From: an uncultured candidatus Porisulfidus sp.
GTDB taxonomy: Bacteria > Pseudomonadota > Gammaproteobacteria > Poriferisulfidales > Poriferisulfidaceae
DNA: 64,000 bases
Assembly (NCBI GenBank): GCA_965116025.1
Contig: OZ220480.1
Span: 800,001-864,000 of the forward strand
Direction of reading: 5' to 3'
Of the stretch, positions 3 to 50,662 are shown piece by piece. Positions within the stretch are counted from its first letter, which is position 1; the number at the start of each line of letters is the position of its first letter. The notes under the pieces were generated by a model that saw only the letters and a program-made list of their open reading frames with translations, was not told the DNA's origin and did not search any database. The position numbers and the translations under genes are program-made.

Positions 3-785
3 GGAGATTCGGATCTGAAGGCGGATTCGAATGGTTGCGCGGCTGGCAATACGCTGGAAGAAGCTATTCTTCAGGGCTTCTTCGAATTGGTCGAGCGAGA
101 CGCCTTCGCGGTCTGGTGGTATAACCGGCTACGCCTGCCCGAGGTGAGCCTGGAGAGCTTCGATGACGAATATCTCTCGACCGCGCGCGCTCGCTACCAG
201 GGTTTCGGCCGGGAGATGTGGGTGCTGGACGCCACGCATGATCTCGGGATCCCGACTTTCGTCGCGGTCTCGAGGCGAACCGACAAGGAAACGGAAGACA
301 TCATCTACGGAGCGGGCGCGCATTCCGATCCGCATATCGCGGTCTCGCGCGCGGTATGCGAGCTGAATCAGTTTCTGAACTGGGCCCAAGGGTCGGAGCG
401 CGGCGGTTGCGGCCATGACGTAGACGATCCGATGTGTCTCTGGTGGTGGCGAAACGCGAAGCTCTCGGAGCATTCCTATTTGGCGCCGGATGGCGATTCC
501 ACCCAGCGTGGAAAATCGGACTATCCCGTCCCCGACACCACGGATGTCAGAGAGGATATCGAATGGTGCCGCGCCTTGGTCGAGAGCAAGGGCCTGGAGT
601 TTTTGGCGCTCGACCAGACTCGTCCCGATATCGGTATGCCGGTGGCGAGGGTCATCGTGCCCGGCCTGCGCCATTTTTGGGAGCGCTTCGCGCCCGGTCG
701 CCTGTTCGGCGTGCCGGTCGAGATGAAGTGGCGCGAAACTCCTCTCGCGGAAGCGGATCTAAACCCGGTCCCGGTTCTCGTGTGA
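3..785 (+). CDS. YcaO-family cyclodehydratase, C-terminal part (5'-partial at window edge)
   Basis: Frame is open from base 3 and reads DSNGCAAGNTLEEAILQGFFELVERD (YcaO ATP-binding motif), then RAVCELNQ and VIVPGLRHFW. The Pro-rich C-terminus NPVPVLV is typical of azoline-forming YcaOs. Confidence 0.93.
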   Translation, partial: GDSDLKADSNGCAAGNTLEEAILQGFFELVERDAFAVWWYNRLRLPEVSLESFDDEYLSTARARYQGFGREMWVLDATHDLGIPTFVAVSRRTDKETEDIIYGAGAHSDPHIAVSRAVCELNQFLNWAQGSERGGCGHDVDDPMCLWWWRNAKLSEHSYLAPDGDSTQRGKSDYPVPDTTDVREDIEWCRALVESKGLEFLALDQTRPDIGMPVARVIVPGLRHFWERFAPGRLFGVPVEMKWRETPLAEADLNPVPVLV

Positions 786-2203: not shown

Positions 2204-4100
2204 GTGCGCAACGAATTGGATCACGCGGAAGCCCTTCCTTCATATGTCATGCGCTCGCGTTCACGGCGGGCGTGGTCACGATTCGAGCGGCGGGTCGGGT
2301 GTGCCGCCCTAGAATTGGTGAATCCCACAGGGCGAAGGCGGGGCGTGAGGCGAACCCGCCGCCTGGACGACGAGCGCCGGCGGCTCGCCGCCGCCGGAAC
2401 GCTGGCCGAGGCCGCGCCCCGCTTCGACCGCCCGGCCCGCTCGGTCGCCGGCGGCGGCGTCCTCGCCGCCCTTCCCGCCCTGCTCCGGGAAGGACTGCTG
2501 GAGCCCGCCCGCCGCATGCTCCGCCTGCCCGACGGCTACTACGGACTGTCCGCCGTCCTGCTCACCTGCGCTTTCCTGACCCTCTCCCGCGCCCGCGCCC
2601 CCGAGGCCCTGCGCCACCAGGCGCCCGGAGAGTGGGGCCTCCCGCTCGGGCTCGACCGCTGCCCCGAGGTCAAGACCCTGCGCCAGAAGACGGCCCTGAT
2701 CGCCGATGCCGAGGAGACCGTCCACGCTTGGCAGAGCGCCTTGGCGCGCGCCTGGATGGAGGACGAGCGCGACGACTGGATGACCTTGGCCGTGGACGGC
2801 CACGTCAAGGTCTACCACGGACGAAAGGGGCGCTTGCCCAAGGGCTTCGTCTCGCGCCAGAAGCTGTGTCTGCCGGCGTCCGCCAGCTACTGGGTCAACG
2901 TCCTTGGCGGCAAGCCCCTGCTGTGCCTGCATAAGAAGCTGGACCCGAAGCTGACGCGCGCCCTGGAGGAGGACGTCCTGCCCGAGCTGGAGCGGATGGG
3001 GCGGGTGCCGGCGGACGCGCCGGACCTGCGCCAGGGCGGGCGCCCCGTGGCCACCCTGGTGTTCGACCGCGAGGGCTGGAGCCCGCAGCTGTTCGCGCGC
3101 CTGGCGCGCCGCGGCGTCGCCTGCGTGACGTGGCGCAAGGGCTCCCGGGAAGACGACTGGCCGCGCGCGGAGTTCCGCTCCCGCGCGGTTCCGGTTCACG
3201 GCCCGGTCGGGAGGGGCGGCTCGCTGACCGTCTCGCTGGCCGAACGCCGGGTCGAGCTGCGCGACGGCCTTCAGGTTCGGGAGATCCGCCGCCTGCTGGA
3301 GAGCGGGCGGCAGGCGGCGCTGATCACGACCCATCCGGACATGCCGACCGAGGAGGTCGCCGGCGCCATGTTCTCGCGCTGGTCGCAAGAGAACTTCTTC
3401 AAGTACATGCGCGAGGAGTTCCGGCTCGACGCCTTGCCGGAGCATGCCGTGGAGCCGCTCGACCCGGAGACCCGGGTGGTCAATCCCGAGCGGCGGGAGG
3501 CGCGGAAAGAAGTCGAGCGCATCAAGCGGAGGCTTCAGTCCGTCGAGACGCGGGTCCGCGGGAAGCGCGCGAAGGGAATGGACGCGACCGGGCTTGAGGC
3601 CGAGGCGCGCGCGCTTCGGAAGCGTCTTGAGGAAGAGACGCTCCGCCGCGACCGGCTACCCGCCCACGTGCGCGCCGGGGAGCTCCGTGAACTCTCCCTG
3701 TAGGCGTTTCCTCATTTCGCCCGCCCACGTGCGCGCCGGGGAGCTCCCGAAGGAGCGGCGGCTCGACGCCTTGCCGGTCGCCCGGCGCCTGTTCGCCGAT
3801 CTCATCCGCATGATCTGCTACCGCGCCGAGACCCGCATGATGGCGGCCTCGGTCGCGGCGCCGGGGCGGAAGCCCCTGACGCGCAAAGCGCTCGCCGCCC
3901 TGATGCGGGCCGACGCCCATCTCCGGCCCGACCCGGAGCGCGGCGTCCTTGAGGTCGAGTTGCTCGGCTTCGCCAACGCCGCCGCCGAGCGAGCCCTCCG
4001 CCCGCTGCTCGACGAGCTCAATCGAACCGAAACCCGCTACCCCGGAACCGACCTCCGGCTCGTCTATCGCGTCGCCGACGAACCGTCCGAAGAGCGATAA
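2204..4100 (+). pseudogene. Large DDE-type transposase, split by a 61-bp insertion and probably 5'-truncated
   Basis: ORF 2204-3703 has LAVDGHVKVYHG, LVFDREGWS and MFSRWSQENFFKYM. It continues in the +1 frame to 4100. PAHVRAGEL occurs in both frames, and removing 61 bp fuses them. Confidence 0.88.
3659..3747. repeat. 28-bp exact direct repeat flanking a 33-bp unique insert (single repeat-spacer-repeat unit)
   Basis: cccgcccacgtgcgcgccggggagctcc at 3659-3686 and 3720-3747; insert gtgaactctccctgtaggcgtttcctcatttcg at 3687-3719. Confidence 0.95.
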
Positions 4101-4137
4101 CGCGTCATCCTATAATGCACTAGGTCAGGATGTCTGA
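4098..4137 (+). mobile_element. Right end / terminal inverted repeat of the IS, containing an outward TATAAT
   Basis: ...tataatgcactaggtcaggatgtctga. A near-identical end lies at 50614-50641, where it pairs with a left IR tcagacatcttgatct. Confidence 0.75.
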
Positions 4138-4206
4138 AATGAGGGCGTGTAAGATAAATTACACGGGCGCGGCTCGCGCAACGAAATTGTCAAGGAGGAT
4201 GACGGC

Positions 4207-5643
4207 ATGGCTAGAACGATATGGATAAAAGGCGTGAAGTACACGGTCGGATATTCAACTAAGGGAACAGAAGGGGATGACGAGTTCGATGCGGGAGCAG
4301 CGTACTTCGTTTTTGGCTACGGCGGCGATGACATTATCTATGGTAGGTACAACGATTATATATGGGGGGGCGAAGGCAACGATACGATTTACGCGGCGGG
4401 CAAGTCTCAAAAGCCTTTAGGGACGAGTACTTACGATGCTGGAGGCGTGATATCTGGCGGTAATGGCAATGACAAACTTTACGGGGGGAGTTCCATAACT
4501 GGCGGGCCGGGGAACGACCTGATGCGGAGTTACGATTCATCTGCCAAGATGAGCGGCGGTGAAGGTGATGACACGATGCATGGCGGTAAAGGCGATGACA
4601 CGATGCATGGCGGTGAAGGTAAAGACACGATGAAGGGTGGCCTAGGCGATGACACGATGAATGGCGGCAAGGGCAAAGACTGGATGAAGGGCGGTGAAGG
4701 CAACGACCAGATGCAGGGCGGTGAAGGTAAAGACATAATCTTCGGCGGTGCGGGCGATGACCTGATCTTCGGAGATCGTATGCTAATCAAGACCATGTCG
4801 GTAGGCAGACCGAGCGAGTGGCAACATAGAGATGTCATATATAGAAACTTCAGCGAAAAAATCGGGGAGTGGATATACGAAGACGAGAAGTGGATATACG
4901 AAGAAGGGGAGTTTAGACACCAAGACGGATCAACACCGCTCCCTGAAGGGATGCATCGAATCTACGAAGGGGGAAATTACCCATACCCGAAACAGCCCGA
5001 TGGTGCGGCTGATATCCTGCATGGCGGTAAAGGCAATGACACGATGATTGGCGGCCCAGGCGCCGACACGATGAATGGCGGTAAAGGCGAGGACACGATG
5101 AATGGCGGCCCAGGTGCCGACACGATGAATGGCGGCAAGGGCAATGACCGGATGGAAGGCGGCCTAGGCGATGACACGATGGATGGCGGCGCGGGCAAAG
5201 ACCGGATGGATGGCGGCCTAGGCGATGACACGATGGATGGCGGCGCGGGCAATGACCGGATGGAAGGCGGCCTAGGCGATGACACGATGGATGGCGGCGC
5301 GGGCAATGACCGGATGGAAGGCGGCCTAGGCGATGACACGATGGATGGCGGCGCGGGCAATGACACGCTATTTGGCGGCAAGGGCGATGATCGCTTTGTC
5401 TTCGGCCCGAATAGTGGACACGATACGATTTATGATTATGAAGACAAGGAAATGATCGTGTTCGCGTCCGAGTTGGGCTTGAGTTTTGAGGACTTGATAA
5501 TCAAGGATGAAACAGACCCTATCTACCAGGGAGCGGCAGAGCCTTTTGTAAGAATAACCGGCTCGCATGCAAATGACTGGAGCGTGACGCTGGTCGGCGT
5601 AGCTTCGGACTTGACCGAATCGGACTTTGATTTTCTAGGATGA
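4207..5643 (+). CDS. RTX-type (hemolysin-like) calcium-binding repeat protein, probable type I secretion substrate
   Basis: RBS aaggagg, many GGxGxDxM/L nonapeptides in two blocks, and a C-terminal GHDTIYDY...LTESDFDF tail typical of T1SS cargo. Confidence 0.92.
   Translation: MARTIWIKGVKYTVGYSTKGTEGDDEFDAGAAYFVFGYGGDDIIYGRYNDYIWGGEGNDTIYAAGKSQKPLGTSTYDAGGVISGGNGNDKLYGGSSITGGPGNDLMRSYDSSAKMSGGEGDDTMHGGKGDDTMHGGEGKDTMKGGLGDDTMNGGKGKDWMKGGEGNDQMQGGEGKDIIFGGAGDDLIFGDRMLIKTMSVGRPSEWQHRDVIYRNFSEKIGEWIYEDEKWIYEEGEFRHQDGSTPLPEGMHRIYEGGNYPYPKQPDGAADILHGGKGNDTMIGGPGADTMNGGKGEDTMNGGPGADTMNGGKGNDRMEGGLGDDTMDGGAGKDRMDGGLGDDTMDGGAGNDRMEGGLGDDTMDGGAGNDRMEGGLGDDTMDGGAGNDTLFGGKGDDRFVFGPNSGHDTIYDYEDKEMIVFASELGLSFEDLIIKDETDPIYQGAAEPFVRITGSHANDWSVTLVGVASDLTESDFDFLG
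5146..5361 (+). repeat. Four near-identical 54-bp tandem repeats in the RTX gene
   Basis: gaccggatgga... recurs at 5146, 5200, 5254 and 5308, encoding DRMEGGLGDDTMDGGAGN. Confidence 0.9.
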
Positions 5644-5957
5644 GGCTCGCGCTGTTCGCGCTGGCGTTCTGTCTCGCGGGGAGCGCGGCGGCGGCGCCAC
5701 CGGAGTTTTGCCGCCAGCACGAGTTTGGCGACAGCCGACCCTATTTTGAATACGCCATGGGCTTCTTTTGGGGGCGTAAAGCAGGATGGGACGTTACTAG
5801 GAATATCGAGTATTGGAACCTATTTGTGGCTACATTTGATTCTGACTTAAAGGACGAGGACGGCATGACAAGGAATGGAGACGCTTGCACACTGCTTGGA
5901 AGGATGGACGGCTTTGTACAAGGATGGCGCGACCGCAAGGAGTTGCTAGGCGAATAG
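5640..5957 (+). CDS. Small exported hypothetical protein
   Basis: ATGA overlap with the RTX stop; signal peptide MRLALFALAFCLAGSAAA. Confidence 0.7.
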   Translation: MRLALFALAFCLAGSAAAAPPEFCRQHEFGDSRPYFEYAMGFFWGRKAGWDVTRNIEYWNLFVATFDSDLKDEDGMTRNGDACTLLGRMDGFVQGWRDRKELLGE

Positions 5958-6545
5958 CCCGGAAGTGGAAATTCCGCCCTAGTGGAAAGTGGAAATCGCG
6001 CCCTAGCGTCGGGTGCCCTGTCGGCTTGATTGATGCCCCGTGTAGTGGTGCGCGGCGGGCCTGGGATATGCAAACATTTTTGATTGGCTCGAAAGTGGAG
6101 CGGGGGTGGGGAATTGGCTCGCGGCTACGCTATTGACTGATAGGCCGCGAGCGTCTAGGATGGCGGGCATGGCAACGATTGACATTCGCATACCTGGTTC
6201 CACCGCGCTATCGAGCCTCGCGGAGAATGGGCTGGGCTTCACCCCGTCGGGAGGGAGGCCGCGCAAGAGCGCGGACGGGCGCGTTAGCGTCCAGCGTCTG
6301 AGATACCGATCTCAGACGCCATGGCGACATCACGCCTAAAAGGACTTGCCCGCGACACGGCGGGCTGGATAGAGACCCTCGAAGTACCTGAAGGCCCCGG
6401 ACGCGGGGAGCGGGTCACTTTACGCGCTTGGCAGCGCGAGTTCCTACGCGGGGCACTCGCGCCCGACACTCGGATAGCCGCCGTGAGCATGGCTCGCGGA
6501 GCGGGCAAGAGTACGACCTGCGCGGCATTGGCCGCCGCCGCCCTA

Positions 6546-7710
6546 GTGTAGTGTAATCTAATTAGAGATATTTATACTTGCTTGGCGCGGAGGGGCGCCA
6601 GCTTGTCCAGGATCTGCTCGGGCGTCTTGCTCCACGAGAACGGCTTCGGGTCGGCGTTGTGATGATCCAGAAAATCGTGGATCGCCCGGGTCAGCTCCCG
6701 CACGCTTCGGAACACCCCCCGCCGCACGCGCCGCTCCGTCAGCTCCCGGAAGAACCGCTCCACCAGGTTCAGCCAGGACGCCGAGGTCGGCGTGAAGTGG
6801 ACGTGGAAACGCGGCCGCCGCGCGAACCATTCCCTCACCTTGCGATGCTTGTGGGTGGCGTAGTTGTCCACGATCAGGTGGACCTCCAGCTCCTTCGGGA
6901 CATGCCCGTCGATCTCCCGCAGGAAGCGCAGGAACTCGACATGCCGATGGCGCTGGTAGCAACGCCCGAGCACCGTGCCGTCCACGGCGTTCAGGGCCGC
7001 GAACAAGGTGGTGGTCCCGTGCCGCTTGTAGTCGTGCGTCATGGTTCCGGCGCGCCCCTTCTTCATCGGCAATCCGGGCTGGGTGCGATCCAGCGCCTGG
7101 ATCTGCGACTTCTCGTCGACGCACAGGACCAAGGCATGCTCAGGCGGGTCCAGATACAGCCCGACGACGTCGCGCAGCTTCTCGACGAAGCGCTCGTCGG
7201 TGGACAGCTTGAACGTTTGGACCAGATGCGGCTTCAGCCCGTGCGCGCGCCAGATCTTGTGAACGGTGGCGTGGCTCACCCCGGCGTGCTGAGCCATGCC
7301 ACGGGTCGACCAATGCGTGGCCTGTTCGGGAGCGTCATGCAGGGTGTCCTCGACGATGCGCTTGACCACGTCGTCGCCGTAGGTCCGCTTGCGCCCTCGC
7401 CCAGGACGGTCGGACAGCCCGGCCAGGCGCCGCTCGGCGAAGCGGTTCCTCCACTTCGCCACCGTGCTGGCGCTCGCGTCCAGTTGATCGGCGATGTCGA
7501 TGGTGCGCCGGCCCTCGGCGGCGAGCAGCACGACGCGAGCGCGAAACGCGTCGCGAACGCTGGAGAGGCTCGAGCGAGCCGTCTCGCTCAGGGCGGCGAG
7601 CTCCTCGGCGCTGAGCTCGATGGGAATGGCGCGGCGCATGCGATTCTCCTCCTGATCGCGGCAATCCGGCGAAGTGTAGCATAAATATATATTATTGACG
7701 TACACTACAC
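6546..7710 (-). mobile_element. IS630-family insertion sequence
   Basis: Terminal inverted repeats gtgtagtgta / tacactacac, flanked by a duplicated TA target (6544-6545 and 7711-7712). Confidence 0.93.
6572..7639 (-). CDS. IS630 transposase (intact)
   Basis: VDEKSQIQALDRTQP, THDYKRHGTTTLFAAL, DNYATHK and PTSASWLNLVERFF motifs; RBS aggagg before the ATG at 7639. Confidence 0.95.
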   Translation of the reverse strand: MRRAIPIELSAEELAALSETARSSLSSVRDAFRARVVLLAAEGRRTIDIADQLDASASTVAKWRNRFAERRLAGLSDRPGRGRKRTYGDDVVKRIVEDTLHDAPEQATHWSTRGMAQHAGVSHATVHKIWRAHGLKPHLVQTFKLSTDERFVEKLRDVVGLYLDPPEHALVLCVDEKSQIQALDRTQPGLPMKKGRAGTMTHDYKRHGTTTLFAALNAVDGTVLGRCYQRHRHVEFLRFLREIDGHVPKELEVHLIVDNYATHKHRKVREWFARRPRFHVHFTPTSASWLNLVERFFRELTERRVRRGVFRSVRELTRAIHDFLDHHNADPKPFSWSKTPEQILDKLAPLRAKQV

Positions 7711-8734
7711 TAGTTGGGCCGCTCGCTCAGTCCTGATCGAGCGTCCTGGTGGTGGCGGCCAGTTTCGCGCAGGCCGTCCGAACGGGCGGGCTGGCGCGCG
7801 ATTTCTTGGCGCCGTTCATCGAGCGCGACCGGAAGGCGTGGCGCATCCAGGACAGCGCCAACAGGTTCGAGCTGGAGTATTTGCCCGCCGGCATTCGCCT
7901 GCGGTGTTGCGGAACGAATCCCCGGACGCTTCACGGGCTGGCCCCGGCCCTGTCGATCCTTGATGAGGCCGCCCAGTGGCAGGTCAACGAGAGCGAGCGG
8001 CTGTGGAACGCGATCTTGACCGCGAGCGGCAAGCAGGGGGCTAGCCGCATTCTGGCCATATCGACGGCGCCGACCCGTCGGGATCATTGGATGTCGCGCC
8101 TGCTCCGCGAGGGCGGGCCGGGGATCTGGACGCGGCTGTATCAGGCGAAGGATGACGCGCTGACCTGGGCGAACGTGAAGCGGGCCAATCCCGGCCTGTC
8201 GAGCGCTCCGACGCTGGCCGCCGCGATCCGCGCGGAGCTGGAACACGCCCGGCGGGATGAGGCGTCGGCGCATGGCTTCCGGGCGTACCGGCTGAATCTC
8301 GGAACCAGCGAGCAGGGGCGGCAATTTCTGATCGACGCGAACACGTGGGCGGCGTTGCCGCTCGGCTCGGAGCGCGAGGGGGAGCCGATCTGGGGCGTGG
8401 ACATGGGCGGGGGGCAATCTTGGAGCGCCTGCGCGGCGTACTGGCCGGACACGGGCTTGCTCGATTGCATGGCGGTGGTCGGCTCCGACCCGACGCTGGA
8501 CGCGCGGGAGCGGGCCGACCGGGTGGAGTCCGGACTCTACCTGACCATGCGCCGCCGGGGGGAGCTGGCGATCATCGAGGGCAAGCGCGTTCCCGACCCG
8601 CTCGACCTGCTCCGGCTCGCGCTGGAGCGCTACGGGGAGCCGCAGGCGATCGTGGCGGATCGCTACCGCTTGCAGGAGCTGGCGGACGCGGTGGACGCGC
8701 TCGGACTTCGCCCGGCTCCGGTGAAGCGGGGGAT

Positions 8735-8758
8735 GGGGGGGGGGGGGGGGGGGGGGGG
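8735..8758. repeat. G24 homopolymer at a sequence junction
   Basis: 24 consecutive G between the terminase and the IS4-like remnant. Confidence 0.9.
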
Positions 8759-8945
8759 ACTAAGGCCGATCTTCTCGGGGAGCTCCTCAAGGAGCGTGTC
8801 GCGTCCAGCTGGGGGCAGGTCAAGCCCCACGGCGTCAAGCGAAAGGCGAGTTCCTACCTTATTCAGGCGCATGGGCATCTGTCCCGCCAGGTCCGCGACT
8901 GGACCCCCCAATTATGCCCAATTCCGTCTTAAAGCAACAGTATCG
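8759..8945 (+). mobile_element. IS4-family remnant (transposase C-terminus and right end)
   Basis: Reads LLGELLKERVASSWGQVKPHGVKRKASSY...stop, resembling the IS4 C-terminal PRxVKRKxSxY motif. It is followed by cttaaagcaacagtatcg, which resembles IS4-type ends (...AACAGTATTG). Confidence 0.6.
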
Positions 8946-11002
8946 TCGCTAGCCGCCCGGACGGACGGACAGGCTTGCCGCTTCAGGAGGGTTTTTCGGT
9001 CCACGGCGACCAGCAGGGGTGGCAGAAAGAAGAGATCGGCGACCAGCGCGAACGCGATGATCAACGCCGTGAGCAAGCCGACCTGCATGGTGGGGACGAA
9101 GGGCGACAAGACCAGGATCAGAAAGCCTCCGACCAGCGCGAGCGAGGTGGTGAGCAGCGCGGGCCCGGCGGTTTGGAACGCGTAGCGGACCGCGTCGTCG
9201 GGAGTGGCGCCGCGCTCGCGGCGCGCGCGACGGTATTTGCTCAGGAAATGAACCGTGTCGTCCACCACGATGCCGATGGTCATGGCCAGCACGACCGACA
9301 GCGCCAGCCCGACCTCTCCCACCGCCAGCCCCCAGATGCCAAATCCCATCGCCCCAGGCACGAGATTGGGCACGAGGCTGACGAGGCCGAGGCGGAGAGA
9401 GCGAAGGGCGACGATCAGAAAGAGGGAGATGCCGAAGAGTGCCACGGCCGTTCCGAGCAGCATGGCCCGAATGTTGCGTTGTCCGATGTGCGCGAAAAGC
9501 AGCGCGGGCCCCGATGCCTCAACCCGGACGACGTTTGGCGCGTGGTCGCTCAGCCACGCGCGCGCGCGTCCAGCTCCAGCGTCTCGCGCGAGGAAAGCGT
9601 CTTCGCGGTCACGGTCACGCGCGTGGCGGATCTCGATATGTCGATTTGGTTGTTGAGATCGAGCCCCAAGGGGAGCGAGAGCTCGTAGAGCAGCAAATAT
9701 TGCGCCGCGAGCTCTCGGTTGTCGGGCAATCGATAGGCATCCGGGTCGTCGCCGTGCATGCTTTTGTTGAGTTGTCGGAAGGTGTCGCTGATGGTTAGGA
9801 CATGCCTGGTCTCCGGCTGGGCCCGGTACCAGTCGGCGAAGGTGGCCAGGTCCGCGAGGTACGCGGGGTTGGAGATCTCGCCCGGCCCGCGCGAGCTGAG
9901 CGAATACTCGATCACCGTGTTGTCGCTCAGACGCTCGTCCAGGAAGTCCGAATCCTGCCGGAACTCGATGCTTTCGTCAAAAAAATGCACGAGAACGTCG
10001 TTGAGCTCGTTGTGCGGGATGGCGGCCGACCCCCAGAGCAGTGGCGCGCGCCAGCGCAGCGTGAACTCCGCGAGAGCCGCCATCATCGGGTCGCGTCGCC
10101 GGGTTGTGGGGGCGCGCATGGGAAGGAGGGAGAGCAGCGCGGGCAGGAACGTGACCGAAAGCAGGAACGAGGCGCCGACGCCCAGCTGCCACGAACGTTC
10201 CGAGGTGGCGGTACGGGGGCACTTCGGAGAAGTTCATGGTCAAGAAGCCGAACGCCGTCGTCGCGCTGGCCAGGAAAATCGGGCTCAGATTGATCTGGAG
10301 GGATTCGACGATGGCGGTGCGTTTCGAGTCCCCCGCCTGAACGCGTTGTCGCGTAGCCACCAGAAGATGCATGCAACTGGCCACGACGACCATCAGCACG
10401 ATGGTTGGGGCCGGGGCCGTGGGAGGAGTGAACGGCAGTCCGATCCATCCGCCCAGTCCCATGGAGACCAGGACCGAGAAAACGATCACGAGCCCGGTCG
10501 CGGCGACCAGGTTGCCGGCGAGCCGTGGCTCGCTCAGGGCCGTCTCTCGGATTCTGGCGCGCGCGTCCGCGTCGCCTAAGGTTCGCGGGTCGACGAGGTC
10601 GCGCACGAGCAGATCGTCGCCGCCCGCCGTCGCGCGCTGGAAGTTGGTGATGGAGTCCACCCGTCGGGAATGTGGCGCGAGCCACGCTCGCTTGGTCAGC
10701 CAAATGGTGGCGGCGAGCGCCTGTTCCGACGCGAAGTTACCCGCTTCCGGAACGATCATGAACCGGACGTTGTCGTTTTTCCCGCAGGTGTTTTCCAGGA
10801 GCTCGAACGCCAGGAGCTGGGGGTTGTCCTCGCTGAAGAACATCCGGTAATTCGTGGAGGTCTTGAGAAGCATGCCGCCGCTCGCGGCGGCTGCGACCAG
10901 CGTCAGGGTAGCGGTGATGATGGGCCAGCGGGCCGCGACGACCCGCTCCCCGAACCGGGTCGCGAAAGGTGGAGAGAGGGAGTCGGTCGCGCTCGTCATC
11001 AC
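8912..11002 (-). pseudogene. MMPL/RND-family transporter, frameshifted and internally deleted
   Basis: Three consecutive fragments (9977-11002, 9550-10119, 8912-9463) carry YRMFFSEDNPQL, ASATTAFGFL, AQYLLLYELSLP and IGIVVDDTVHFLSKY. Confidence 0.88.
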
Positions 11003-11190
11003 GCGAACGCCGACATGAACAGTTTTTTGGGAAGGTTACCGTCGAGGCGCGGCGGAACGGGACGCGGCGGCCAAAAACTTCTGGTGAGAGAAGACGCGAT
11101 ACGAGCGCTCCACGCCAGAAGTTTTTTGCTTACAAAGTCGCTTCCGAATCCAGCCCGTCTATCTCGAGAAAGCAGGCGGGCATGATGATT

Positions 11191-11444
11191 TTAGAGGCAG
11201 CAGCAAAGGCTGGCGGCGATCGACTCGAGTTGCTCCTCGTCCAGCTCCGGACCAGCCGGCAGGGCGAGATGAAGAGTCGTCATATCGCTCTCGTGCGCCT
11301 TAGATCTCGAAATTGTCGGGCGCCTCGATATTGAGCTTCTCGGCGATGGCCCCCCTTGGGGTCATCCATGAGCCGATTGCGGAACTCCGCGTCCTCGCAT
11401 GCTTTCTCTGTGAGATGGCGGCGCATCTCTTCCGAACGTTGCAT
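11191..11444 (-). pseudogene. NHLP (nitrile-hydratase-leader) RiPP precursor with core LCCCL and two +1 frameshifts
   Basis: Reconstructed by hand: MQRSEEMRRHLTEKACEDAEFRNRLMDDPKG/AIAEKLNIEAPDNFEI/KAHESDMTTLHLALPAGPELDEEQLESIAAS-LCCCL-stop. The span is 254 bp, i.e. 84 codons plus 2 extra bases. Confidence 0.85.
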
Positions 11445-11700
11445 TGCCGCTTCCGCAAATGATCCCCTAATGATATCCTCCTCGCTAGGTGGACTATATC
11501 CGCGTTTTGGCATCTAGCTCGAACCCGAAATGGTCGCTTTAGTCAACGCGGCCGCGACGTTCTCGATCCAAAGCGATTCCTTTTCGCCCGACGCGCGGGC
11601 GGCGAGGTTGGCTTCCCGCCCGGATCTCGGGGAGCCAAAGCTGGTACGGTCGGTAGAGAATCCGGGCCTCCCCCGCGGGTCGGAAGTAGAATACGCCTTC

Positions 11701-12525
11701 ATGCGGCTGGACTTCACCAAGATGCATAGTTTGGGCAACGACTTCGTCGTGCTGGACGCTTGGGCGCGCGAGATTTCCTTGACGCCGTCGCAGCTGCGGC
11801 GGATCGCGGATCGCCGCGCGGGAGTCGGCTGCGATCAGATCTTGTTTCTGGATCCCGACCCGGATGTCGATTTCGCCTACCGCGTTCACAACGCCGACGG
11901 CCAGCCAGCGGGGCAATGCGGCAACGGCGCGCGGTGCTTGGCGCGCTACGCCGCCGACCGCGGATACGCGGACTCCGAGCGCCAGCGCGCGCGCGCGCCC
12001 TCGGGGGAGGTGGCGCTACGGCTGCGCGACGATGGCTCGGTGAGCGTCGACATGGGAGTCCCGCGTCTAGAGCCGGACGAGATCCCCTTCTCGCATCGGG
12101 GCCGCCAGTCGTCCTATGCCTTGGAAGTGGGCGGCGAGGATCTCTCGCTAGGCGCGGTGTCCATGGGAAACCCGCACGCGGTGCTCACCGTCGACTCCGT
12201 CCCCAGCGCGCCGGTGCGCGAGCTGGGCCCCCGCGTCGAGACCCACCCGAAATTCCCCCGGCGCGCCAACGTGGGCTTCATGGAGATCTCCACGCCCCGG
12301 CACATCCGGCTGCGCGTGTGGGAGCGCGGGGTCGGGGAGACCCCGGGCTGCGGCACCGGCGCCTGCGCGGCCGTGGTCGTGGGCCGGCTGGCGGGAGAGC
12401 TGCGCGAGGACGTCGCGGTGTCGCTTCCCGGCGGCGACCTCCAAGTTCGCTGGGAGGGAGAGGGGCGGTCCGTGACGTTGCGCGGAAGCGCGGAATACGC
12501 TTATACGGGGAGTCTGGAGCTATGA
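11701..12525 (+). CDS. dapF: Diaminopimelate epimerase
   Basis: FTKMHSLGNDF, CGNGARC, SMGNPHAV and ERGVGETPGCGTGACA motifs. Confidence 0.97.
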   Translation: MRLDFTKMHSLGNDFVVLDAWAREISLTPSQLRRIADRRAGVGCDQILFLDPDPDVDFAYRVHNADGQPAGQCGNGARCLARYAADRGYADSERQRARAPSGEVALRLRDDGSVSVDMGVPRLEPDEIPFSHRGRQSSYALEVGGEDLSLGAVSMGNPHAVLTVDSVPSAPVRELGPRVETHPKFPRRANVGFMEISTPRHIRLRVWERGVGETPGCGTGACAAVVVGRLAGELREDVAVSLPGGDLQVRWEGEGRSVTLRGSAEYAYTGSLEL

Positions 12526-24768: not shown

Positions 24769-26396
24769 TTCTCTCTCAGTCGCTCGCGAACTTCGGGGTC
24801 TTTCTCTCGCCGCGCGAGATCGCAGACCTGGCGCGTGACGATGTCCTCGTCCGTCTCGTAGTCGTCCGGCTCGCGGGCCTCCCCGGTCTGGGCGCTCCCC
24901 GGGACCCCGCCGCCCTTGTTGGATTCGGCCGTTTCCTCCCGGGCGTCTTCCGGGCCCTCCCGACCGGCTTGGCGCTCCTCGCTCTTCTCTCGCCCCGCTC
25001 CGCCGACTCCGGCTCCACCGCCTCGCCGCTCCTCTCGCTCCCGACGGGCCTCGTAGCGGGCGTCGAGCAGGATCTGGTCGACGCGGCCCAGCGCCGCCTG
25101 GGCGCGAGCGAGGCTGGCGGCGCGTTTTTCCTCGACGCTCTCGCCGCCCGCGAGCTCGGGGTCTCTCCCTCCCATTCGCCGCGCGGAAGCGCTTTCCGCG
25201 TCCACGCCGTCATCAGGCGTCTCGCCCATCGCTGCTCGCTCCGCGGGCGCGCGTTCTGGCGTGGCGAGATCCTCAGGGGACTCGCTCCGCGTGGGTGCTT
25301 CGGGAGCTTTCGCCTCGGCGGTCTCTTCGGCTTTCGGACTCCGCTCCGCTTGGGCCTCTTGGCCGTCGAGCAGGATCTGGTCGACGCGGCTCAGCGCGTC
25401 TTGGGCGCGCTCAAGGCTGGCGGCGCGCTCTTCCTCGACGCTCTCGCCGCCCGCGAGCTCGGGGTCTCTCTCTCCCATTCGCGGCGCGGAAGCGCTCTCC
25501 GCGTCCTCGTCGTCATCGGGCGTCTCGCCCATCGCTTCCCGCTCCGCGGGCGCGCGTTCTGGCGTGGCGAGATCCTCAGGGGACTCGCTCCGCGTGGGCG
25601 CCTCAGGAGCTTTCGCCTCGGCGGTCTCTCCGGCTTTCGGACTCCGCTCCGCTTGGGCCTCTTGGCCGTCGAGCAGGATCTGGTCGACGCGGCTCAGCGC
25701 GTCTTGGGCGCGCTCAAGGCTGGCGTCGCTCTCTTCCTCGGCGCTCTGGTCGCCCGCGAGCTCGGGGTCTCTCCCTCCCATTCGCCGCGCGGAAGCGCTT
25801 TCCGCGTCCACGCCGTCATCGGGCGTCTCGCCCATCGCTGCTCGCTCCGCGGGCGCGCGTTCTGGCGTGGCGAGATCCTCAGGGGACTCGCTCCGCGTGG
25901 GCGCTTCGGGAGCTTTCGCCTCGGCGGTTTCTTCGGCTTTCGGACTCCGCTCCGCTTGGGCCTCTTGGCCGTCGAGCAGGATCTGGTCGACGCGGCTCAG
26001 CGCGTCTTGGGCGCGCTCAAGGCTGGCGTCGCTCTCTTCCTCGGCGCTCTGGTCGCGCGCGAGCTCGGGGTCTCTCTCTTCTTTCTCCAGCGCGGTGGCG
26101 CTCTCCGCGTCCTCGTCCTCAGGCTTCTCGCTCGCCGCCTCTCGTTCCGGCGGCGGCTCGTCCGGCATGGCGAGATCCTCGGGAGGCTCGCTCCGCGGGG
26201 GCGCCTTGGGGATATCCCTTTCGACGGGCTCCTCGACTTTCGGACTCAGCCCCGCGCGATTCTCGTCCGAAATCAGGCGCAGGGCGATTCGCTCGCCAGA
26301 ATCGGAGGCGACGGGGAACGGGGAATCCGCGGCGTGTCCGGCGCCGCCAAGCGACGCCAGCAACCCCAGCGAAAGCGCTCGCGCGTGCATGTGCAT
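24744..26396 (-). CDS. Exported, acidic, repeat-rich protein
   Basis: Signal peptide, about four 101-aa repeats with helical SLERAQDALSRVDQILLD, and C-terminal DEDIVTRQVCDLARREKDPEVRERL. Confidence 0.8.
   Translation of the reverse strand: MHMHARALSLGLLASLGGAGHAADSPFPVASDSGERIALRLISDENRAGLSPKVEEPVERDIPKAPPRSEPPEDLAMPDEPPPEREAASEKPEDEDAESATALEKEERDPELARDQSAEEESDASLERAQDALSRVDQILLDGQEAQAERSPKAEETAEAKAPEAPTRSESPEDLATPERAPAERAAMGETPDDGVDAESASARRMGGRDPELAGDQSAEEESDASLERAQDALSRVDQILLDGQEAQAERSPKAGETAEAKAPEAPTRSESPEDLATPERAPAEREAMGETPDDDEDAESASAPRMGERDPELAGGESVEEERAASLERAQDALSRVDQILLDGQEAQAERSPKAEETAEAKAPEAPTRSESPEDLATPERAPAERAAMGETPDDGVDAESASARRMGGRDPELAGGESVEEKRAASLARAQAALGRVDQILLDARYEARREREERRGGGAGVGGAGREKSEERQAGREGPEDAREETAESNKGGGVPGSAQTGEAREPDDYETDEDIVTRQVCDLARREKDPEVRERLREKCETLKKG
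25062..26246. repeat. About 3.9 tandem copies of a 303-bp unit
   Basis: gtcgagcaggatctggtcgacgcgg at 25062, 25365, 25668 and 25971. Confidence 0.93.
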
Positions 26397-49450: not shown

Positions 49451-50350
49451 ATGCGCTCAGCCTTCTTCGATGCGCGCGCGACCTCTCCGTTCCTGGAGAT
49501 GGGAGCTTACGAAGCCCTGTGGTCCGAGCCGACCGCCACGTTCAAATCGCTCGCCAAGCGTTTCGCCAGCCATCCGGGTTGCGTTCCTTCTAACTTCGTC
49601 TCCTTGAACGAAGCGCGTGAATGCGCCGCTTTCGTGAAACGCCGATTCGACGCGGCGGGCGTGAGGAGGTTTGGCGTGCGGGTGTACGGCGCGGGCGAGT
49701 ACCCGGAGATGTTGCGTGACGCGGCCTATCCCGTTGAGGCGTTCTACTACCAAGGCGGGTGGGATCTCGTATACTCTCGGCTGGTTGCCGTCATAGGGAC
49801 TCGAAAACCCTCGCGAGAGGGAGCCTCGCGCGCGCGACGGCTCGTTCGCGCGCTTGTGGCCGACGACTTCACGGTCGTGTCGGGACTCGCCGCGGGGATT
49901 GACCGCGTGGCCCACGAGACCGCTATTGAGGAGCGAGGCCGCACGATCGCGGTGCTTGGCACGCCGCTCTCGCATGTCTACCCCAAAGAGAACGCGAATC
50001 TGCAGCGTCACATCGCCGAGAATTTTCTTCTCATAAGCCAAGTGCCCTTGAAGCGCTACGAGTCCCAAGACTATCGTCATAATCGTGGATTCTTTCCAGA
50101 ACGCAACGTGACTATGTCCGCGTTGACTGAGGCGACGATCATCGTCGAAGCGGAGGAGAAGTCGGGAACGCTCATCCAGGCGCGCGCCGCCCTCCATCAA
50201 GGACGCAAGCTTTTCGTTCTCGACAGTTGCTTTCGCGACTCGCGCTTGACGTGGCCAAGGAAACTCGTCGAGAAAGGAGCCATTCGGGTTAGGGATTACG
50301 ATGATGTTCGCCAGCGGCTTGCCCGAATAAATTCAGACATCTTGATCTGA
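49451..50350 (+). CDS. Short DprA/Smf-like protein
   Basis: VAVIGTR, VSGLAAGID, FFPERN and EA..KSGTLIQA; lacks the canonical DprA C-terminal domain; the last codons come from the MITE end. Confidence 0.85.
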   Translation: MRSAFFDARATSPFLEMGAYEALWSEPTATFKSLAKRFASHPGCVPSNFVSLNEARECAAFVKRRFDAAGVRRFGVRVYGAGEYPEMLRDAAYPVEAFYYQGGWDLVYSRLVAVIGTRKPSREGASRARRLVRALVADDFTVVSGLAAGIDRVAHETAIEERGRTIAVLGTPLSHVYPKENANLQRHIAENFLLISQVPLKRYESQDYRHNRGFFPERNVTMSALTEATIIVEAEEKSGTLIQARAALHQGRKLFVLDSCFRDSRLTWPRKLVEKGAIRVRDYDDVRQRLARINSDILI

Positions 50351-50641
50351 TAGTCTGATATCGCGAGGGCTGGAGCCCGGAGCTGTTCGCGCGCTTGGCG
50401 CGCTGCGGTGCTACCTGCGTCTCACGTGGCGCGAGAGTTCTCGGGAGGACGACTGGCCGAGTGCCGCGTCGGGTCGCGCGACGGCCTCCGGGTTCGCCAA
50501 TTTCATCCGCATGATCCGCTACCGCGCCGAGACTCGCCATTCCGGAACCGGTCTCCGGTCTGTCTACCGCGTCGTCGACGCGCCGTCCACAGAGGAATAA
50601 AGCGTCATCCCCCTATAATGCATTTAGGTCAGGATGTCTGA
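50333..50641 (+). mobile_element. MITE-like internally deleted derivative of the 2.2-4.1 kb IS family
   Basis: Inverted ends tcagacatcttgatct / aggtcaggatgtctga (14/16 match). The interior is a patchwork of segments matching about 3068-3163, 3245-3279, 3797-3838 and 4043-4137. Confidence 0.85.
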
Positions 50642-50662
50642 AACTTATGATGGCGACAACGA

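Follow-up and report, generated by a model that had tools for sequence, protein, structure and literature searches.

An insertion sequence (IS) remnant in the genome of an uncultured candidatus Porisulfidus bacterium has its transposase gene interrupted by an exact 28-bp direct duplication that brackets 33 bp of inserted DNA. The stretch we analysed, referred to throughout as the window, is 64,000 nucleotides long (GenBank assembly GCA_965116025.1, contig OZ220480.1, positions 800,001 to 864,000; G000:C1:800001-864000). It belongs to the genome G000, a single contig of 2,018,984 bp with 62.7% G+C and 99.39% completeness. The unit in the window (unit 1, window 3659-3747) has a counterpart of identical geometry 177 kb away and outside the window (unit 2, genome 980866-980954). 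Both units are probably off-target scars, or ‘neo-CRISPR’ insertions (CRISPR, short palindromic repeats that are clustered and regularly interspaced), left by a type I-E Cas1-Cas2 integrase that is now gone from the genome or resides off the chromosome. We favour type I-E because of the geometry, an anchor motif that lies in register within the duplicated targets, and the G with which both inserts begin. An earlier note on this DNA had read unit 1 as a natural neo-CRISPR event that inactivated a mobile element. The geometry, an empty site, unit 2 and the likeness to type I-E repeats speak for such an event; the lack of type I-E genes or of a type I-E array in this genome speaks against it.

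The duplication, the insert and the empty site

The interrupted gene encodes a transposase of the Transposase_29 family (Pfam PF21804). The open reading frame (ORF) 2204-3703 holds the N-terminal piece (PF21804 positions 9-418, E 7e-83) and stops at a TAG within the insert, while the frame 3720-4100 holds the C-terminal piece (positions 445-560). The 28-mer CCCGCCCACGTGCGCGCCGGGGAGCTCC occurs in exactly two copies in the window (3659-3686 and 3720-3747), 61 bp apart from start to start; none of 100 shuffles gave two matches. The duplication ends at 28 bp on both sides, the copies being preceded by A and G, respectively, and followed by G and C. The 33-bp insert between them (3687-3719), of which 17 of the 33 bases are G or C by hand count, occurs once in the window at up to three mismatches and once in the whole genome at up to eight. 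The exact repeat search, the shuffles and the non-extendable ends thus bear out what the earlier note had seen here, an exact 28-bp duplication around 33 bp with no second copy in the window. Its statement that the added 61 bp shift the frame, and that their deletion restores the reading RDRLPAHVRAGELPKERRL, agrees with the ORF translations and with a DNA alignment to an intact paralog.

How does the site appear when the insert is missing? The paralog, which is the one full copy of the IS in the genome (~419.48-421.88 kb), is bounded by terminal inverted repeats. Its 742-aa ORF is intact, with helix-turn-helix (HTH) and Transposase_29 domains, and it is ~96% identical to the copy in the window. 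In the alignment the paralog contains the 28-mer once, with one mismatch and without the insert, and so represents an empty site. Unit 1 was also compared with contigs from three public runs of one study (X1, X2 and X3). In X1, possibly the source sample of the assembly and hence not independent support, two 94-nt unitigs (3623-3716 and 3689-3782; depth 34-36) agree with the window without a mismatch and so cover both filled junctions; a separate unitig of depth 37.8 is the paralog's empty form. A 1,269-nt contig of X2 differs by one base from the window copy over 3450-3950 (440 aligned bases) and omits exactly the 61 bp. A contig of X3 omits the same 61 bp.

The empty allele of X2 keeps the window-type bases that flank the site, including the A preceding the 28-mer. 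We conclude that the event at unit 1 was a true 28-bp target duplication with a 33-bp insert. Because the empty site is found both in the paralog and in contigs from two sister samples, the insertion is genuine and recent; its recency follows from its being polymorphic among near-identical strains. The two checks that had been proposed for this site, an alignment of other IS copies in search of an empty form and reads that span the junctions, both turned out in favour of an insertion.

On the other hand, the ‘knock-out’ of the transposase announced in the earlier note is overstated. The frameshift is real, but the window copy of the IS also lacks its left inverted repeat and approximately its first 680 nt, the HTH region included. 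This copy is therefore defective whether the insert is present or not. A third representative of the same IS, a heavily degraded and internally deleted remnant, lies in the window at 50328-50642, with 79-91% identity in short pieces.

Table 1. Coordinates, in the window, of the IS remnant and of the unit inserted in it.
Feature	Position	Strand	Remarks
Upstream part of the 5'-truncated IS remnant	2357..3658	+	PF21804 9-418; homology to the full copy from 2357, ~97% identity
Left copy of the duplicated 28-bp target (neo-repeat)	3659..3686	+	Exact direct repeat; I-E-like when read on +
33-bp spacer-like insert	3687..3719	+	Begins with G; holds the TAG that terminates the upstream ORF
Right copy of the duplicated 28-bp target	3720..3747	+	100% identity to 3659-3686
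Downstream part of the IS remnant	3748..4144	+	PF21804 445-560; ~95% identity to the full copy
Right inverted repeat of the IS remnant	~4123-4136	+	Right end GGTCAGGATGTCTG, identical to the reverse-complemented left end of the full copy

A second unit and the likeness of both targets to type I-E repeats

The whole genome was scanned exactly, for direct repeats of at least 20 nt at a spacing of 40-110 bp, and more loosely, for at least 24 of 26 matches at periods of 45-89. In both scans units 1 and 2 are the only units of 61-bp period in 2.02 Mb; the remainder of the exact scan consists of the CRISPR array and of protein-coding tandem repeats. The further 28+33 insertion that the earlier note had suggested looking for therefore exists, in one exact instance. 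Unit 2 (L004 3866-3954) contains two exact copies of the 28-mer CCGCTCTCCCCGCGCGCCCAGTCCAGAG around the 33-mer GACGCGGCCCGAACGGCGCTCTTCTTGTTCGAC, which itself occurs once in the genome at up to three mismatches. The 28-mers of the two units differ. The two inserts are unrelated in sequence and hence do not represent copies of a mobile element. A congener, G010, scanned in this way as a negative control for the scan and not as evidence on mechanism, returned no unit of 61-bp period outside the array in 1.63 of 1.638 Mb.

A fur-like gene and folP flank unit 2, which is situated 79 bp upstream of the fur start and may affect the fur promoter. As for its empty site, the relatives have no homologous intergenic region and the 28-mer of unit 2 was unmatched in the metagenome search. 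The adjacency of fur and folP (L004 3302-5023) seems peculiar to G000, since the two genes lie at different loci in the listed same-genus genomes that match both.

Type I-E systems occur in the lineage. One of the 15 congeners, G010, has a complete operon (cas3, cse1, cse2, cas7e, cas5e, cas6e, cas1e and cas2e) together with an array of 60 repeats at a strict 61-bp period; the 28-nt repeat is CTGTTCCCCGCCCACGCGGGGATGAACC and 58 of the 59 spacers begin with G. Within the order, Cas1e scores above the cut-off in three of 53 genomes (G010, G048 and G020), all three with 61-bp-period arrays. This places type I-E in the gene pool of the lineage. The earlier note had named the lack of any type I-E system in the lineage as something that would refute its reading; this lack is true of the genome itself and untrue of the genus (one of 15) and of the order (three of 53). 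The locus of G010 stands directly after tRNA-Leu(CAG), with three glycosyl- or methyltransferase genes (G010:C1 ~1467600-1484000; L016 5607 to L017 2044). At 580161-580357 G000 has the same tRNA-Leu(CAG), the conserved downstream gene within ~110 bp and no island. We considered the G010 locus as an integrative element and rejected this: the 3' end of the tRNA is not duplicated, and the neighbouring genes code for glycosyl- and methyltransferases. In appearance the locus is a variable region next to a tRNA and not a demonstrated mobile island.

Do the duplicated targets resemble the repeats that such systems use? In the E. coli repeat, Goren et al. 2016 (PMC5039180) describe a GCGGG in the leader-distal inverted repeat (IR2) that anchors a ruler, with the spacer 8 nt past the end of the motif, and a CCCCGCG in the leader-proximal inverted repeat (IR1) that ends 16 nt ahead of the junction and anchors a 16-nt ruler; by their account both inverted repeats matter for efficiency. 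The repeat of E. coli K-12 (NC_000913.3) fits these rulers, and in its array the 28-nt repeat is followed by G in 10 of 10 units, the spacings being 61 bp in seven of nine cases and 62 bp in the other two. Unit 2, read in reverse, has GCGGG (5/5) at positions 16-20 and GCGGGGA (7/7) at positions 16-22, in register, where the background frequency for each position and strand is 1.4e-4. Unit 1, read forward, has GCCGG at positions 16-20, four of the five bases of GCGGG, and matches IR2 at five of seven (background 0.027).

A profile built from four type I-E repeats (E. coli, G010, G048 and G020) was scored at all genome positions on both strands. Unit 1 forward is among the highest-scoring 0.106% of positions, and unit 2 reverse among the highest-scoring 0.293%; in the opposite orientations they fall at 18.5% and 9.1%, respectively. 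With two orientations allowed, the joint probability of these ranks is, by our own arithmetic, ~1e-5 as a product and ~1.5e-4 by Fisher's method. The duplicated segment had been held to resemble type I-E repeats when read in reverse. The likeness is there, in register, but the orientation is the other one: unit 1 agrees with the four repeats at 13-15 of 28 positions forward and at 9-12 of 28 in reverse. In the I-E-like orientation the first base of the insert is G in both units, an agreement of low weight, since G makes up 31% of bases and the corresponding base is mostly C or T in two other type I-E arrays of the order. Both 28-mers also contain the hexamer GCGCGC at positions 12-17 (genome frequency 0.0027 per position). 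A symmetric recognition site was considered and set aside; the hexamer is better taken as part of a CGCGC(G/C)GGG stretch that is in register in the repeat of G020.

The units share with canonical type I-E arrays (E. coli K-12, G010) the 61-bp period, the 28-nt duplicate, the 33-nt insert with an initial G, and the IR2-like GCGGG motif ending 8 nt ahead of the repeat-spacer junction. They differ from them in being a single repeat-spacer-repeat, in having as repeat a host coding or intergenic sequence, in their poor IR1 and in the absence of adjoining cas genes. Each locus holds one unit, and the repeats of the two units are different, which sets them apart from a bona fide CRISPR locus. Nor do the units function as CRISPR loci here, given that type I-E genes for processing or interference are missing from the genome. 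Rfam, which also failed to recognize the genuine type I-E array of G010 used as a control, matched both units at chance level only and to no CRISPR family.

Candidate integrases and competing explanations

Which Cas1 does this genome encode? The Pfam Cas1 model, which covers all Cas1 types, has one match, a Cas4g/Cas1g fusion (NCBIfam NF049935, 753 bits) followed by Cas2 and then by an array. This is a type I-G system. Its array has repeats of 36-37 nt, spacers of 34-39 nt and a period of 71-75 bp, with 39 repeat matches, and fits neither 28 nor 33. The cas-proximal end of the array (genome 342277-342633; L003 17277-17633) has spacings of 88, 55, 53, 80 and 80 bp and one repeat that is a base short, which suggests that this end is decayed or rearranged. 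The earlier note had proposed looking in the same genome for a type I-E cas operon and for arrays of 61-bp period. Neither was found; the sole system is the type I-G one.

Could the inserts reveal the source of the captured DNA? Neither has an exact 33-mer match in viral or genome contigs, and insert 1 has none in metagenome contigs. In 40 relatives searched at up to three mismatches neither insert was matched, and blastn against phages and plasmids gave partial matches only (E >= 0.07). The proposed search of the 33-mer against the genome and viromes has thus yielded no source. Spacers of the type I-G array and of three type I-E loci were also compared with the inserts and dismissed as kin: the identities are of 8-12 nt and were taken as chance, the best being an 11-mer, for which the chance expectation is 0.03, and a 12-mer located outside the array.

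We picture the events as follows. A type I-E integrase loaded with a 33-nt prespacer, the first base of which would be a G derived from the protospacer-adjacent motif (PAM), would have docked on chromosomal sequence resembling the leader-distal half of a type I-E repeat. Two staggered strand transfers 28 bp apart would have joined the prespacer to the target, and gap repair would have duplicated the 28 bp. The integrase may afterwards have disappeared, for instance together with a strain-variable island such as G010 has next to tRNA-Leu(CAG); alternatively, it may be carried by a replicon or mobile element outside the assembly. As the assembly consists of a single contig, 99.39% complete, a plasmid off the chromosome could be its carrier. 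The assignment of the enzyme to type I-E would follow from the geometry and the sequence likeness.

Several observations weigh against this account. The models of Cse1, of the type I-E Cas2 and of Cas1e have no matches in the genome; tblastn with the eight type I-E proteins of G010 gives a best E of 5e-5, for Cas3, beside the type I-G locus; and there is neither a genome site within six mismatches of the G010 repeat nor another periodic array. As the insertion at unit 1 is recent, the absence of the enzyme requires a recent loss or an unassembled replicon, and we infer that a type I-E module was either lost recently or is off the chromosome or mobile. The viral, genome, relative, phage and plasmid searches contain no protospacer for either insert. 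IR1 is poor in both targets, its heptamer TCCCCGC (positions 5-11) being matched at four of seven in unit 1 forward and at two of seven in unit 2 reverse. The profile scores are not extreme, for by our own arithmetic ~4,000-12,000 genome positions score equally, and the motif was noticed ahead of the formal test. Finally, G010 has an active-looking type I-E system and yet no orphan units.

Might a different adaptation module account for the units? With no type I-E genes in the genome, the subtype is read from geometry and sequence likeness, and another foreign module with a 28-bp ruler could be imagined, whether an I-F-like Cas1-Cas2/3 or a minimal Cas1-Cas2 borne by a plasmid or phage; the integration mechanism would be unchanged, with a difference in enzyme subtype alone. 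Type I-F repeats are also 28 bp long; their spacers are typically 32 nt, for a period of 60 bp, whereas both units have 33-nt inserts and a 61-bp period. The type I-E IR2 motif in register, the top 0.1-0.3% ranks of both 28-mers and the fact that Pfam Cas1 finds the type I-G fusion only likewise make such a module improbable. The resident type I-G Cas4/Cas1-Cas2 is the one adaptation module known to be present, its 39 repeat matches suggest past activity, and like the units it involves spacer insertion with duplication of a repeat. To produce the units it would have had to work aberrantly, with both duplication and spacer shorter than those of its own array, and to arrive twice at exactly 28+33. 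None of its own spacers is 33 nt long. Its repeat has no GCGGG, and the looser scan found no orphan unit of its 71-75-bp period outside the array. We regard this as very improbable indeed.

Processes other than CRISPR adaptation are to be considered as well: repair of a staggered double-strand break with captured filler DNA, or an unrecognized integrase or transposase that makes cuts staggered by 28 bp. They draw on the same gaps, namely the lack of a cognate Cas1-Cas2 in the genome and of a protospacer or PAM that would tie the inserts to adaptation. The units do resemble IS target-site duplications and excision footprints in that a direct duplication of the target flanks inserted DNA. However, the two inserts are mutually unrelated, so neither is a transposable element; and the known target duplications of IS fall far short of 28 bp. 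We know of no repair or transposition process with a fixed 28-bp duplication and a fixed 33-bp unrelated insert. The identical geometry occurs twice, the anchor and the profile ranks would be coincidences, and such processes seem unlikely. That unit 1 is an assembly or sequencing artefact would be easier to maintain if X1, the best run, is the assembly's own source. We give this next to no credence, as the X1 unitigs run through both junctions without a mismatch at a depth comparable to that of the paralog's empty form, a second unit of the same geometry exists 177 kb away and each 33-mer is unique in the genome. A more radical possibility, which we hold to be distinctly unlikely, is that the cell in which both units arose had never had type I-E, and that the agent was an enzyme so far unrecognized as having this ruler, whether the type I-G Cas4/Cas1-Cas2 in an alternative mode or an integrase unrelated to Cas1. 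If true, I-E-like geometry would not be diagnostic of type I-E, and the units would represent a new class of short-DNA capture. Much more likely is the milder version, in which a mobile or since-lost type I-E module passed through the lineage and the scars are its sole trace.

Features around unit 1 and the meaning of the scars

Among the scanned window ORFs that adjoin unit 1, Pfam identifies a DDE transposase, YcaO and a protein of RTX repeats, and no cas gene. The C-terminal part of a YcaO cyclodehydratase is encoded at 3-785 (+), next to a 368-aa ORF (823-1929) without a Pfam match. At 4207-5643 (+) lies the gene for a 478-aa protein made up mostly of RTX calcium-binding nonapeptide repeats; similar coding repeats, with periods of 54 or 108 bp, are many across the genome. 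An intact DDE_3/HTH transposase gene (6572-7705, -) stands between the ORFs 6321-6551 and 7749-9185 and may mark the insertion of an IS into some other gene. Within ORF 7749-9185, which has no Pfam match, a run of 24 G (8735-8758) is read as poly-glycine; it may reflect an error in assembling a homopolymer, or else a tract prone to slippage. Further on, the window has a tandem repeat with a 303-bp unit in 4.0 copies (25061-26255; 90% matches).

How do the units compare with events already on record? Off-target spacer integration has been described in E. coli over-producing Cas1-Cas2 (Nivala, Shipman and Church 2018, Nat Microbiol, as reported in PMC11788318, PMC7054753 and PMC6698737). For natural genomes, a preprint that cites Nivala et al. 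2018 (bioRxiv 10.1101/148544) speaks of circumstantial evidence only, in two other species. Like the E. coli events as these sources present them, the units have a spacer-sized insert and a repeat-length duplication of non-CRISPR chromosomal sequence away from arrays, and their 28+33 geometry is that of the E. coli array. Unlike those events, which followed over-production of Cas1-Cas2, the present ones are natural, are two in one genome, include one that is polymorphic among sister strains, and have an integrase that the genome does not encode.

There are, then, two clean natural events in one small genome, and at unit 1 some sister strains have the empty allele and others the filled one. Both points support the view that in nature the machinery of CRISPR adaptation is a rare insertional mutagen. 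The two target sites also show, in a natural setting, the requirements of the integrase: an IR2 anchor is present in register, and IR1 seems dispensable. If the absence of type I-E holds, such scars could outlive the system that made them and mark CRISPR-Cas modules that were lost or only transient.

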